A stretch of DNA of 64,000 bases from an uncultured Solirubrobacterales bacterium (GCA_963787605.1 CAWBDC010000003.1:307804-371803); one strand, 5' to 3'. Positions 33,410 through 47,244 are shown, numbered from the stretch's first letter. Numbers and translations: made by a program. Notes: generated by a model from the sequence alone, not told the origin.

Positions 33410-33476
33410 GTCTCACCGGCGTGAGACAGTTCAGTCTCATCCAAGTGAGACGATTGGCGTCTCAGTGATATGAGAC
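33410..33476. repeat. Array A: three phased GTCTCA-N6-TGAGAC palindromes
   Basis: Units at 33410-27, 33434-51 and 33459-76. Confidence 0.9.
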
Positions 33477-33576
33477 TGGACGCAGTGACTACGCAGTGTC
33501 TAAAGACGGCGCGAACTGGGACCTGAACTTGCGCCGCCGGCTGAGTATCAGTCCAGCTCCAACGGCCGGCCTGACG

Positions 33577-33949
33577 TCACGCAGATGCGCCGGCTCCGGA
33601 GGTGATGTGCTCGATCACGGGCCGGAACTCCTCGGTCGGTGAGAAGTCGACGTATTCGGAGTCCTCGAGCGCTTCGGGGGCGTGGCCGGGGGGCCCAGTA
33701 GAACGCTTCGCCAGCGGCGAAGTCCTGGTGCCCGTCCAGAGTGTGCATACGCACCCGGCCTTTGATCATGTAGCCCCAGTGCGGGCATGGGCAAAGGTCG
33801 TTCGGTAGGCCTTTGGTGGCGGGGCGCAGGTCGGCACCGGCCGGCAGCCGCACGAACCCGACGGACAGACCGGCCTCATCGCGCGGGCGGACCTCGACGC
33901 CGTTGTCGTCGATCACGACCGGGACGTCCTCACGTGAAATGGATCTCAT
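33577..33949 (-). CDS. Small cupin-domain protein (frameshift near 33690)
   Basis: RBS AAGGA; CPCPHWGYMIKG, AGEAFYWAPGH, EYVDFSP. Confidence 0.85.
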
Positions 33950-33965
33950 CTGTGTCCTTCTCCTG

Positions 33966-36167
33966 TTAGTTGAGCAGCGTGGCGATGTGACGGGCCGCCG
34001 TGGCGGCACCGTGGGTCTCCACGTCGCGGTACTCGACCTGGCTGCCGATCTCCTGCGCGATCGCAGCCGCGATCAGCTCCGGCGGCGAGTCGTCGTAGTC
34101 CATGCGCCGACCGGCGCCGTAGCGTTCGAGGCGGTGGCGGACATGGAAGTTCTGCTCGAAGTGGTGGCGCAGGGGGAAGTAGAGAAAGGGCCGCTTCTGC
34201 GCGGTCAGCTCCATCGAGGTCGTCAGGCCGCCCTGCACGACGGCCAGGTCGCAGGCGGCCAGGTGGCGGTAGAGGTTGTGGACGTAGGGGACCACCTCGA
34301 GGCCGACCTGGGAGGGGAGCGACTCGGGGTCGATGCGGGGCCCTGCGACGACGATCATGCGCAGCTCCGGGATGCGCTCCTTCGCCTGTGGGAACGCGGC
34401 GATCACCCGTCGCAGCAGGTCGGCGCCGACGCCTGAGCCGCCGACGGTGACGATGCACACCTGCTCGTCCTCGCCGTAGCCGAGCTCGGCGCGCAGCTTG
34501 CTGCGATCGCCGAGGTCCGCGGGATCGAAGCCGGTGACGTAGCCGGTGAAGGAGTAGTTGCGTTCGGTCCAGTCGCGGATCATCGGCAGTTCGGGCCCGA
34601 GGCGCTTGGGGACGATGTCCTCGGGGTTGCCGACGAACAGCGAGAGGTCGCGGACCTCGGGGTGCTCGGCGATGTGCTCGACCTTCTGGGCGTTGTGGTC
34701 GGCGGCCAGGAAGCGCTCGCGCGCGTCGCCGTCGTCCATCGGCAGGAAGCCGACGAAGTCCGACAGCCACGCGTACGGTGTGCGCTTCTCGCGCGGGTTC
34801 TCGTGCAGGTAGTAGTCGAGCTCCCACGCCTCGTCTCCGATCCACAGGTCGTAGCGATCCTCGCGCACAACGTCGTGGAAGAGCATGAAGTTGGCGGCGA
34901 GGATCTCGTCCATGCGGCGGATCGCGTGGAAGCAGTGCAGATCGTGCTCGGCGGACTCCGACTCGATGTGCCTCGACTCGTTGGCCAGATGCGGGCTGGC
35001 TGGATGGATGCGCTCGCCCTCTGCCTCCAGCATCCGCGTGACGGGGTCCTGTGCCAGCCAGTCGACCTGCAGATCGGGATGCAGACGGCGCAGCTCGCGG
35101 GCGATCGCCACGTCGCGCTGAGCGTGGCCGAGCCCGATCGGCGAGGAGACGAACAGCGCGCGAGGACGGCCATCGGGCCGATACACCGTCGGATCGCGCG
35201 GCGTGCGCTTGCGTCCGAAAGCATCCTCGGCAAAATCCCGCAGCGCCAGGTTGAACCGGACAGGCTTGCGCACATGCGGCAGATGGCCTGCCCCCGCGAC
35301 GGTGTTCAGCTCGCCTCCGCTTAGCCGCGCGAGCGCCCGGCCGTCGCGGGTCGCTGAGATCTTGTCGCGCTCGCCGTGGACGACCAGAACCGGGCAGGGC
35401 AGGCTTCGCGCGATCTTGCGCAGGTTGCGCCGGCCGCGCAGGAACTCGCCATGCGCCACTGTGGCCGTGAGCGTGTCGGGATCGCTGTCGAGCATCCATC
35501 CGACGCCGTCTTCGATCGGCTTGGGGGAGTGGTCCTCGGGCAGGCAACGCGCCATGAACCAGTCCGCGAAGCGGCGGTGGTCCTGGCGCCAATAGAGCGG
35601 GTTCATGTGCGCCCATGAGACGGGCGTGCGTAGATGAAGCTTGCGCGTGACCCTTTGCACCAGCGGATCGGATGAGGACCGTATTCTGAGAGAGGGTGTA
35701 GGGGAATAGCGGGCCAATGAACAACGCGCCGAGGACTCGCTCGGGGGCGATTCGTGCCAGCTCGAACTGGTACTGCGCGCCAGTGGAGAGACTCGCCATC
35801 ACAGCCCGCTCGGTACCTGTCTCATCCATCACGGCCAGGCAATCGCGAGCGGACTCCAGCGGTGCGTAGCGCTTCGGGTCCCGGCAGCGATCGGAGCGGC
35901 CGTTGCCGAGACCGTCCATGCTCAGCACCCGGAAGTGGCGTGCGAGGTAGGCGATCTGCATCTTCCAGTGACGGGAGTGAACGATCGACCAGGTCGGCAG
36001 CAGGAAGATCGTCTCCTCGCCCTCGCCGTAGAGCTCGTAGAAGACCCGTTGGCCGTCGCGCTCGACGAAGCCTTCGCGATCGGGGTAGCGGGCGCGGCTC
36101 TGCTCGCCGTCACGGCCGATCGTTCGCCCGGCGGGCGCCGGCGAGCGTCGCGGTATGCCGGGTTCAT
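33966..36167 (-). CDS. Alpha/beta hydrolase fused to glycosyltransferase (frameshifts near 36110 and 35710)
   Basis: LPTWSIVHS, DGLGNGRSD, SLSTG, HGERD, GHLPH, then SPIGLGHAQRD and AVVQGGLTTSMEL. Confidence 0.85.
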
Positions 36168-36186
36168 GCGTTGCCGAGACGCGCGC

Positions 36187-44808: not shown

Positions 44809-44911
44809 CAGACGTCTTCAATCAGCGTCCGAAACGGCCCGGATGGCTCGACACTGCTGCGCCTATGGCTCTCACTGTAGCTGAGGCCGTCGTGTCGCTA
44901 TCGTCGAGCAC

Positions 44912-45349
44912 ATGACGATCCAGCGCATGGACCACGTGGGCATCGTGGTCGACGACCTCGCCGCCGCAACGGGGTTCTTCGTCGAGCTCGGACTCGAGCT
45001 GCAGGGCGAGAGTCCGGTCGAGGGCGGTTGGGTGGACCGCGTGGTGGGGCTCGAGGGCGTCCGAGCGAATATCGCGATGATGCAGACCCCGGACGGCCAC
45101 GGACGGATTGAGCTGGCGAAGTTTCATGCCCCGCCGGGCCGGGGTGGTGAACAGCACGCGCCGGCGAACATCCCGGGTATCCGCCACATCACATTTGCCG
45201 TCGACGACATCGACGACGTAGTCGCCAGGTTGCAAGCTCGCGGCGCCGAGCTCGTCGGCGAGGTGGAGCGCTACGAGAACATCTATCGGCTCTGCTACAT
45301 CCGCGGCCCGGAGGGGATCATCGTCGAGCTGGCAGAGCGGATCGGCTGA
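44912..45349 (+). CDS. VOC/glyoxalase family protein
   Basis: MDHVGIVVDDL, GIRHITFAVDD, RGPEGIIVELAE. Confidence 0.92.
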   Translation: MTIQRMDHVGIVVDDLAAATGFFVELGLELQGESPVEGGWVDRVVGLEGVRANIAMMQTPDGHGRIELAKFHAPPGRGGEQHAPANIPGIRHITFAVDDIDDVVARLQARGAELVGEVERYENIYRLCYIRGPEGIIVELAERIG

Positions 45350-45642
45350 AGATTCCGGCTGGCCGGCGATTCAAGGGAGCCGTCACGATCTTTCGACCAG
45401 GTGTCCCCCGCCACTCGCCGCAATGCTCGTATTCCAAAGTCACTCGACGAGGGCGCTGCCGTGGCGCACACCTCGTGACTGGACGTAGAGCATCCGTCCG
45501 CAGTAGAAACGTAAGACGAACGCCAGATACGTCCTCCCCCTCCGCTTTCAATTTATACCGAAAAAAAACTTTGCGCGAAGTCTCGGGACCTGCCGCATAA
45601 TCGCCCGCCGCAAGCCAGAACCTACGGAAATGGAGGCGCGAA

Positions 45643-45687
45643 ATGCGTGTGTTTTTGTCGACGTATCCGACGGGAGTGTGGCGATGA
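45643..45687 (+). other. 14-codon micro-[17 protein letters not shown] (glycosyltransferase remnant or leader peptide)
   Basis: Strong RBS GGAGG; stop overlaps the monooxygenase ATG (ATGA). Confidence 0.5.
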
Positions 45688-47205
45688 CCGAGCATGCGGT
45701 GGTGATCGCCGGAGGCGGTCCGACGGGGATGATGCTGGCGGCTGAGTTGGCGTTGGCGAAGGTCGACGTCGCGGTCGTCGAGCGGCGTCCCGATCACGTG
45801 CTCGTCGGCTCACGGGCCGGCGGCTTTCACTCGCGCACGATCGAGGTGCTGGATCAGCGTGGGGTCGCCGATCGGTTCCTCGCGGAGGGTCAGGTGGCTC
45901 AGGCCGCGATGTTCGGCACGACCGTGTTGGACATGAGCGACTTCCCGACGCGTCATCCGTATTCGCTCGGGATCTGGCAGAACCAGATCGAGCGGATCAT
46001 GGCCGCCTGGATCGCCGAGCTGCCGGTGCGGATCTACTACGGATGTGAGGTGACGGGCTTCGCGCAGGACGACACCGGCGTCGACGTCGAGCTGTCCGAC
46101 GGCCAGTCGCTGCGGGCGCAGTATCTCGTCGGGTGCGACGGAGGACGCAGCGTCATCCGTAAAGCAGCCGGCATCGAGTTCCCGGGGTGGGATCCGACGA
46201 GGAGCAACCTGATCGCCGAGGTCGAGATGACCGAGGAGCCGCCGCTGGGCATCCGCCACGACGCCACCGGCGTCCACGGCCTCCGCAGGATGGAGTACGA
46301 GATCCGCGACGGCGAGGTGGTCTACGGGATGGGGGCCGGTGCGGGTCATCGTGACCGAGCAGCAGCTCGGGCCCAGCAGCGAGCCCACCCTGCGCGATCT
46401 GAGCGAGGCGCTCGATCGCCGTCTACGGCACCGACTTCGGGATCCACAGTCCCACGTGGATCTCCAGGTTCACCGACATGACACGTCAGGCAGCGGCCTA
46501 CCGCGCGGGACGAGTCCTGCTCGCCGGCGACTCGGCGCACGTGCATTACCCGGCGGGTGGACAGGGCCTCAGCCTCGGTGTGCAGGATGCGGTGAATCTG
46601 GGATGGAAGCTGGCTCAGGTGGTCAACGGGACCTCCCCGGAGAGCCTCCTGGACACCTATCAGGACGAGCGCCACCCGGTCGCTGCCCGCGCGCTCCAGC
46701 ACACGATGGCTCAGACCGCGCTCCAGCGCCAGGACGAGCGCATCGAAGGCCCTGGTCGATGTGGTGTCGGAGCTGGCGAGCATGGACGAGCCTCGCAAAC
46801 GGCTCGCCGGGATCATCTCCGGGCTGGACATTCATTACGACCTCGGCGAGGGACATCCGCTGCTCGGACGCCGCATGCCCGATCTGGACCTCGTGACCGC
46901 CGACGGCCCGCTCCGAGTCTTCGAGCTGCTGCACGACGCCAAGCCGGTGCTGCTCAACCTCGGTGAGCCCGGCGGCTTTGACATCACTCCATGGGCGGAC
47001 CGGGTCCAGCTGATCGACGCTGAATATGCCGGCCCGTGGGAGCTTCCGGTACTCGGCGCGGTCACCGCTCCCACTGCCGTGTTGATCCGGCCCGACGGAT
47101 ACGTCGCCTGGGTGGGAGACGGCACCGACGCCGGACTTGCGCGACGCGCTGACCACCTGGTTCGGACCGCCCACCGATGAGACATTTGTGGTCTCACATG
47201 CCTGA
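45684..47205 (+). CDS. FAD-dependent monooxygenase (Rox/PheA-like group A; frameshifted)
   Basis: [54 protein letters not shown]. Confidence 0.92.
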
Positions 47206-47244
47206 GATTGGTGTCGATGGGTTCCGCGGCACGTGTCGGTCTCA
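47178..47244. repeat. Array C: partial TCTCA-N6-TGAGA array
   Basis: TGAGAC 47178-83; GTCTCA-catgcc-TGAGAT 47191-208; GTCTCA 47239-44. Confidence 0.7.

Follow-up and report, generated by a model that had tools for sequence, protein, structure and literature searches.

GTCTCA-N6-TGAGAC palindrome arrays as probable ends of dif-homing, Tn7/Tn5053-like transposons in an uncultured Solirubrobacterales genus

What are recurrent arrays of short palindromes doing at the edges of an accessory region in an uncultured Solirubrobacterales bacterium? The question is raised by a 64,000-nucleotide stretch of its 3.1-Mb assembly (GCA_963787605.1, CAWBDC010000003.1; positions 307804-371803 of contig C3), which we refer to as the window and number from its first letter. 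Three arrays of the motif GTCTCA-N6-TGAGAC, termed A, B and C, lie between positions 33404 and 47244. The original prediction took them for recombination or nucleoprotein sites that resemble serine-resolvase res sites or tyrosine-recombinase cores and delimit gene cassettes acted on in trans. We conclude that the arrays are very probably the ends of a dif-homing family of transposons, related to Tn7 and Tn5053, in one uncultured Solirubrobacterales genus. The family was previously unnamed.

Anatomy of the palindrome arrays

The exact 18-bp unit was observed at 33410, 33434, 33459, 40168 and 40214 of the window. These five occurrences compare with 0.00 expected from 100 shuffles, so that the arrays are real; their sequences and spacings are as first described, with unit periods of 24 and 25 bp in array A and of 24 and 22 bp in array B. 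A scan of the window with up to two mismatches added degenerate units at 40192, 40337 and 47191. Across the whole 3.1-Mb assembly, no exact unit was found outside arrays A and B, and the sole other notable match with one mismatch, at C1:675592, is a relic adjoining a second copy of dif on another contig.

To place the arrays in a wider context, species-representative genomes were scanned for two adjacent units, which yielded 44 loci, about 33 of them from metagenome-assembled genomes (MAGs) of Solirubrobacterales. The remaining loci, from Prevotella, other Bacteroidales and a few others, had a different period of 22 bp or two units only. The tandem GTCTCA...TGAGAC arrays of Bacteroidales, found in Prevotella dentasini (L009, L018, L026, L029 and L034) and at L017, L036 and L043, combine an exact 22-bp period with three to four units and several arrays per genome, and they seem unrelated to the Solirubrobacterales ends. 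Tandem units were present in 2 of 301 sampled genomes of the order, both belonging to the window's genus, and in none of the approximately 285 genomes of the order outside it. Within the genus, 30 of 401 genomes carried arrays, with one to three tandem matches each at one locus per genome. The trait is patchy, low in copy number and limited to one site per genome.

Alignment of the related arrays distinguished two types. The type I end, to which array A belongs, consists of a tip TGCGRC and three units with periods of 24 and 25 bp; with units in brackets, its consensus reads TGCGRC [GTCTCAccgatgTGAGAC] agcccc [GTCTCAtccataTGAGAC] cgttggc [GTCTCAtycatrTGAGAC]. The type II end has the same tip and three to four units with periods of 22 and 24 bp, the fourth unit often lying 35 bp further in. 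All units follow one 6-6-6 geometry. The description of the six-nucleotide loop as variable holds within the window. Across about 25 related arrays, by contrast, the loops are conserved by position (ccgatg in unit 1, tccata in unit 2, tycatr in unit 3), and in the aligned triplets the inter-unit spacers and the stems are likewise conserved. Because the outer hexamer TGCGRC is conserved in each array, the arrays are to be regarded as oriented elements of about 80 bp that come in two types.

The outer hexamer also marks a boundary. DNA beyond the tip was unrelated between loci, and DNA on the unit-3 side was common within subfamilies. Where two arrays abut, they always do so tip to tip, with gaps of 0 to 10 bp. 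The tip read TGCGGC in 46 and TGCGAC in 12 of the 69 ends scored; given that 58 of 69 ends begin in this way, the termini are therefore of the form 5'-TG..CA-3'. Homology blocks common to different genomes are single-gene modules of 85-97% identity, and they ended within 5 bp of the tips in 5.8% of cases, compared with 0.25% for random positions (23-fold). Since the blocks stop at the tips, the tips are recombination junctions, and the breakpoints lie outside unit 1, at TGCGRC. Asymmetric units such as GTCCCG...TGAGAC are frequent in intact type II ends. The dyad symmetry is thus dispensable, and protomers or monomers of a transposase fit the repeats better than a dimeric regulator would. These compact, defined end sequences (approximately 75-90 bp) are available for functional work.

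In the window, array A (33404-33476, plus strand) is a distal, or L, type I end with the interior of the element to its right. Its tip hexamer TGCGAC (33404-33409) precedes the exact units at 33410, 33434 and 33459. It aligns with 24 related ends and scored 75.6 bits against the type I model, equal to the ends of intact elements. Compared with the second copy of the terminus, on contig C1, homology breaks off about 30 bp to the left of the array's tip. Array B (40168-40237, minus strand) is a dif-proximal, or R, type II end with the interior to its left. On the minus strand, its units 1, 2 and 3 start at 40214, 40192 and 40168, the tip GCCTCA occupies 40232-40237 and a half-remnant of a fourth unit remains at 40133-40150; the array scored 78.6 bits against the type II model on that strand.

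Intact elements, the dif site and the competing explanations

Intact elements were found in relatives. They measure 16-19 kb, have a type II end on one side and a type I end on the other, and carry 5'-TG..CA-3' termini. Exact 5-bp target duplications flanked 3 of 32 plus/minus end pairs, whereas about 0.06 were expected. The duplicated sequences are unrelated to one another: TATCA around the 16.6-kb element at L067, ATTTG around the 18.7-kb element at L065, and GTAGA around a 2.0-kb element at L060 that is without transposition genes. A further small element (L061:8779-10001, on G656:C1) measures 1.2 kb, lies 36 nt from dif and consists of a type II end, one open reading frame (ORF) of 142 amino acids (aa) and a type I end. 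This ORF looks PIN/VapC-like by eye only, and the element may be the smallest mobilisable member of the family.

Which enzymes move these elements? In agreement with the original prediction, no rve, Phage_integrase or Resolvase protein was found in the window. The same was true of the surroundings of most array loci, which had no recombinase within 10 kb, and the window's contig held no Resolvase gene. When all rve and integrase ORFs of this genome were compared with the array loci by tblastn, only a tyrosine recombinase at L019 was matched; it lies about 0.9 kb inside a type II tip and led to the intact elements. Of 30 genomes with arrays, 8 had a close homologue of it (77-100% identity), compared with 0 of 20 genomes without arrays. 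In most of those eight genomes the recombinase is located about 5-17 kb from the arrays, and one copy is 47 kb off.

The facts on the machinery that follow derive from the intact elements of relatives. A conserved module sits just inside the type II end, with its genes reading towards the tip. The transposase matches Mu-transpos_C (3.5e-10), rve_3 (2.5e-8) and rve; among PDB entries, ShCAST TnsB was the best match (6e-15). Its ORF was called at 632 aa, and the homologues measure about 484-488 aa; they fall into 30 clusters, all from metagenomes or MAGs, and are named at most 'putative transposase' in the sources. Directly downstream of the transposase gene is that of a TniB/TnsC-like AAA+ ATPase of 252 aa (AAA_22, 9.4e-21). 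A protein of 425 aa takes the TniQ position and has no significant family match, only a faint one to TniQ (E = 0.14). The fourth protein, r18, is Xer-like: its 278 aa match only Phage_int_SAM_1, the N-terminal SAM-like domain of XerC/D. Aligned with Xer proteins, it is without Arg-I and the HxLRH block and ends soon after the Tyr aligned with the catalytic Tyr, and it is probably inactive, as judged from this alignment. The opposite strand of the module encodes a 226-aa protein with a weak HTH match, a RibD_C protein and the XerD-like tyrosine recombinase (PF00589). No TnsA domain was found in the four module proteins. PF08722 (TnsA) was also unmatched in five genomes with intact elements, which is uninformative in that the control genomes were unmatched too.

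The position of the ends leads to dif. The AT-rich tract adjoining array B contains the predicted chromosomal dif (40268-40295, minus strand), a 28-bp site of the form ATGCTCGATAA-TGTATG-TTATGTAAAGT, with an XerC arm, a 6-bp centre and an XerD arm arranged 11-6-11 and partial dyad symmetry. It closely resembles the dif sequence of E. coli, GGTGCGCATAA-TGTATA-TTATGTTAAAT. The site coincides with the cumulative GC-skew maximum of the contig, and the dif core was also found in array-negative genomes of the genus. An 11-6-11 architecture is that reported for dif (PMC5357621). The same AT-rich motif appeared in the flanks outside the type II tips of the L067 and L065 elements. Overall, for 11 of the 15 dif copies in the DNA examined, the XerC arm was 31-39 nt away from a type II end, and the orientation was the same each time. 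Ends facing the XerD arm were seen in the window, where the tip of array B is 30 nt from that arm, and at L059 (about 23 nt).

Three observations on the surroundings of dif deserve mention in their own right. Beside the intact element at L065 (L065:1-1040; G490:C1:461000-462040), dif keeps its XerC arm and centre, and the XerD arm is replaced by GGGAGACgcttgaGGTCTCCC, a palindrome of transposon half-sites in reverse order. Second, the assembly contains two homologous, inverted terminus copies, C1:655000-695000 and C3:325000-364000 (about 17200-56200 of the window), of 84-94% identity. Both carry an identical dif core, each at a GC-skew maximum, and contigs C2 and C4 each have a skew minimum. 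The explanation is either a bin in which two related populations are mixed or an organism with two related replicons. Third, the core genes left of the island (25471-29571 of the window: a lipid kinase, murT, gatD and a 285-aa neighbour) also adjoin the arrays at L048, L052, L059 and L060, which indicates that the terminus neighbourhood is partly syntenic across the genus.

Taken together, the DDE module, the TG..CA tips and the 5-bp duplications argue for transposition and not for exchange at the palindromes by a serine resolvase or a tyrosine recombinase. The proposal of recombination sites therefore stands insofar as the arrays delimit accessory segments and the enzyme is encoded elsewhere; the analogy with res sites and tyrosine cores does not.

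Among the other explanations, the one that survives best regards the arrays as arm or accessory sites (att, res or attC-like), with the XerD-like tyrosine recombinase exchanging strands at the tips. Such a recombinase does co-occur with the arrays, several tandem junctions read TGAGACGCCGCA-N7-TGCGGCGTCTCA, a 12-7-12 inverted repeat, and type I arrays in direct series look like arrays of cassettes. However, the gap between tips can be anything from 0 to 10 bp, single elements have 5-bp duplications of unrelated sequence at their flanks and not a common core, a complete TnsB-like and AAA+ module is present at the type II end, and around most array loci there is no recombinase within 10 kb. We consider this explanation unlikely. 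Several specific versions of it were also tried and rejected. Integron-like attC cassettes, suggested by the direct type I series and by genes ending at arrays, were dropped given the type II ends, the tip-to-tip junctions and the 5-bp duplications. A tyrosine-recombinase core at the 12-7-12 tandem junctions was set aside because the spacer length is too variable, and boundaries of the tyrosine-core, attC or pdif kind because of the 0-10-bp tip spacers, the lack of a fixed overlap and, again, the duplications. A serine-resolvase res site was rejected on account of the uniform 6-6-6 units, breakpoints at the tip outside unit 1 and the lack of a resolvase gene nearby.

A second explanation, which we hold to be very improbable, would make the arrays cooperative sites of operator or enhancer type, at which a transcription factor, for example a STAND/LAL regulator, controls adjacent accessory genes. 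Array A ends 27 bp upstream of a DUF302 start codon, STAND/LAL/SARP-type regulators occur at 13 of 21 array loci, and arrays of dyads suit oligomeric regulators. On the other hand, genes on both sides of the arrays are of mixed orientation and many arrays lie between convergent 3' ends, so that the initial argument against plain operators was sound. The aligned related arrays contain no promoter-like element at a fixed distance from the tip, and thus no conserved promoter geometry outside it. Moreover, arrays stand tip to tip 0-10 bp apart, type II ends are adjoined by transposase genes and keep a fixed distance from dif, and the 5-bp duplications around end pairs largely refute operators. Least credible of all are hairpins of RNA or single-stranded DNA, acting as a terminator, an RNA-stability element or something REP/RAYT-like. 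A 6-bp stem is possible in each unit and the 81-nt array folds at z = -4.1, but no covariation was seen in the stems, pairing is broken by asymmetric units that recur (ATCTCA...TGAGAC, GTCCCG...TGAGAC), Rfam gave no match, and a genome has only 1-3 arrays, which all lie at dif and without Y1/RAYT-type context. The target duplications, the transposase genes and the constant spacing from dif speak against each of these three explanations.

Several points nevertheless weigh against ends of a dif-homing transposon. The A/B pair has no matching 5-bp flanks (CGGCA versus GCAAA); without a matching duplication, the two ends may derive from separate insertions that a deletion brought together. A search of 25 relatives with the joined L067 flanks yielded no clean empty site and matched only the dif core, because the flanks at the terminus diverge too fast; the second terminus copy on contig C1 is informative for relics and is likewise not a clean empty site. 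The machinery is known from relatives alone, and this genome is without transposition genes. The 425-aa protein holds the TniQ position without a family match, and a profile of four sequences gave nothing significant in PDB. Binding of the repeats by the transposase is put forward by analogy, and the sites of Tn7 or Mu are not typically near-palindromes like these units. Finally, the predicted identity of dif rests on sequence likeness, position and conservation.

Decayed elements and relics in the window

How would such a family have produced the pattern in the window? By analogy with TnsB, TniA and MuA, the DDE transposase of the element would bind to each repeat and assemble on both ends. 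Together with the TniB/TnsC-like ATPase and one or more target-selecting proteins, it would then insert the element with a 5-bp duplication, 31-39 nt from the XerC arm or sometimes about 30 nt from the XerD arm, and always with the type II end towards dif. As no TnsA homologue was found, cointegrates are probably resolved by the element's own XerD-like tyrosine recombinase. Through rounds of insertion and decay at the dif landing pad, an accessory island would build up at the replication terminus. In this way, a single mechanism would account for both the sequence pattern and the mosaic island.

The window contains two decayed elements facing dif, plus older relics. One would be A-B (33404-40237) on the XerD side and the other B'...C (40331 to about 47240) on the XerC side. 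The intervals of 6.8 and 7.0 kb, initially understood as phased cassette spacing, instead reflect two elements inserted on either side of dif. Searches of this genome by tblastn with tniA, tniB, r8 and r2 gave no match, and no homologues of the transposase, the ATPase or the 425-aa protein were found in it. Because transposition genes are missing and several cargo genes are broken, the window copies are fossils or, at best, elements that are immobile unless a transposase is supplied in trans.

On the XerC side, B' (40331-40376, plus strand) is a decayed type II end with its interior to the right. Its tip TGCGGC (40331-40336) and the unit GTCCCGtgaatgTGAGAC (40337-40354) are followed by a degenerate unit. 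The score against the type II model was weak (14 bits), and B' lies 35 nt from the 28-bp dif, in the canonical position and orientation. After B' come a RibD_C gene, a glyoxalase gene, a relic of r18, an ArsP/YHS permease gene and a relic unit at 43421-43438. The r18 relic (41750-41830, minus strand) encodes 27 aa that match residues 178-204 of r18 with 74% identity in tblastn (E 3.5e-6). Its orientation is correct relative to B', and in intact elements r18 adjoins the type II end. The relic unit, TTCACAgccgtgTGAAAC, belongs to an older type II end adjoining a hydrolase-cyclase gene. On contig C1, the homologue of this gene (94% identity) directly adjoins a relic of a type II end, which lies 39 nt from dif and whose unit 2 can be aligned with the unit in the window. 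The segment 40331-43420 was probably inserted later, between the older end and dif.

Beyond the relic unit follow the hydrolase-cyclase gene, a glyoxalase gene, a FAD monooxygenase gene in three frames and array C (47166-47244, minus strand). The array first described here is present as a decayed end, tentatively assigned and weak in its match: a half unit ending at 47183, the unit GTCTCAcatgccTGAGAT (47191-47208), a degenerate unit (47215-47232) and a stray GTCTCA at 47239. It scored only 17 bits against the type II model, though its 25/24 spacing fits a type I end. Tentatively, array C is likely to be what is left of a left-facing type I end that was paired with B' or with the older element.

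The cargo between arrays A and B (33477-40167) contains no transposition genes by Pfam or tblastn. It includes a 153-aa ORF; on the minus strand, a fusion of hydrolase and glycosyltransferase (33966-35717) and a wHTH-methyltransferase broken up over frames (36164-37404); and, on the plus strand, a STAND/LAL-type regulator in two pieces (37578-38882 and 38812-40128). In all, genes broken into two or three reading frames were noted at 36164-37404, 37578-40128, 45630-47180 (the FAD monooxygenase) and 47233-47745 (a RibD_C-like gene). The split cargo genes could be true pseudogenes or indel errors of long-read assembly. Large STAND regulators (LAL or SARP-like, approximately 900-1370 aa) are the commonest cargo, at the 13 of 21 array loci mentioned above. 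They were noted at L046, L050, L054, L059, L062, L063 and L064 and at 37433-40128 of the window, often together with a FAD monooxygenase or a small DUF4242-like gene.

Comparison with known transposons and dif-associated elements

The closest comparison is with Tn7. Its ends carry an 8-bp tip and TnsB sites of 22 bp; the left end has three of these and the right end four, more tightly placed (PMC9308760). The dif elements share with Tn7 and Tn7-like transposons, including type V-K CAST, a Mu-transpos_C DDE transposase, for which ShCAST TnsB was the best structural match, and an AAA+ partner. Their ends are asymmetric in the same manner, with a short terminal sequence and three sites at one end versus three to four tighter sites at the other. 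The 5'-TG..CA-3' termini and the 5-bp target duplication are also alike, as are the fixed distance and orientation from one chromosomal site and the tandem pile-ups and decayed copies found there. By contrast, the transposition genes of the dif elements read towards the end and not inwards, near-palindromes of 18 bp form the end repeats, and dif serves as the target. No TnsA was found in them, with the uninformative control described above, and there was no significant match to TniQ/TnsD.

Members of the Tn5053/Tn402 family, the 'res-site hunters', encode TniA, TniB, TniQ and TniR, have multiple end repeats, generate a 5-bp duplication and target the sites of site-specific recombinases. The dif elements resemble them in the seemingly TnsA-less module of TniA and TniB type and in an element-encoded recombinase that presumably serves cointegrate resolution. 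This recombinase is, however, of the tyrosine (XerD-like) class and not a serine TniR, and the target is a chromosomal Xer site, in contrast to the res sites of plasmids or transposons. The additional, probably inactive Xer-like protein is a further difference.

Other mobile elements also use dif as a landing site. Insertion sequences (IS) of the IS1202 family insert with one orientation at a distance of 5 bp from dif's XerC arm (PMC10132070), and IMEX such as CTXphi and GGI integrate into dif itself by Xer recombination (PMC5357621). In contrast to both, a heteromeric transposase here inserts 31-39 nt away and leaves dif intact; IS1202 is an IS with a single transposase. No TniA/TniB- or Tn7-type element with dif as its target turned up in our literature search. 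The present family would add dif to the attachment sites of heteromeric TnsB/TniB-type transposons and extend such elements to an uncultured group of soil actinobacteria.

The comparison with Tn6022-type elements concerns target selection. In these, an inactivated tyrosine recombinase, TnsF, selects comM (PMC10293859; PMC11014353). The operon of the dif elements similarly encodes a protein derived from a tyrosine recombinase that seemingly lacks the catalytic residues, which suggests that a recombinase fold may read a DNA site here as well. The two differ in that TnsF works with TniQ in a TnsA-containing Tn7-like element and targets comM, whereas the candidate selector r18 is similar to XerC/D in its N-terminal part, and dif is the site targeted. 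Given the TnsF precedent, the Xer-like r18 is a natural candidate for a dif reader. We therefore propose, tentatively, that a seemingly TnsA-less lineage of Actinomycetota may home to dif through r18, which, alone or with the 425-aa protein, could read dif or bound XerCD; r18 is a testable candidate for a recombinase-derived target selector. If true, this would be a second independent recruitment of the tyrosine-recombinase fold as a transposon target selector, after TnsF, and, dif being nearly universal, it would offer a portable 'safe-harbour' targeting module.

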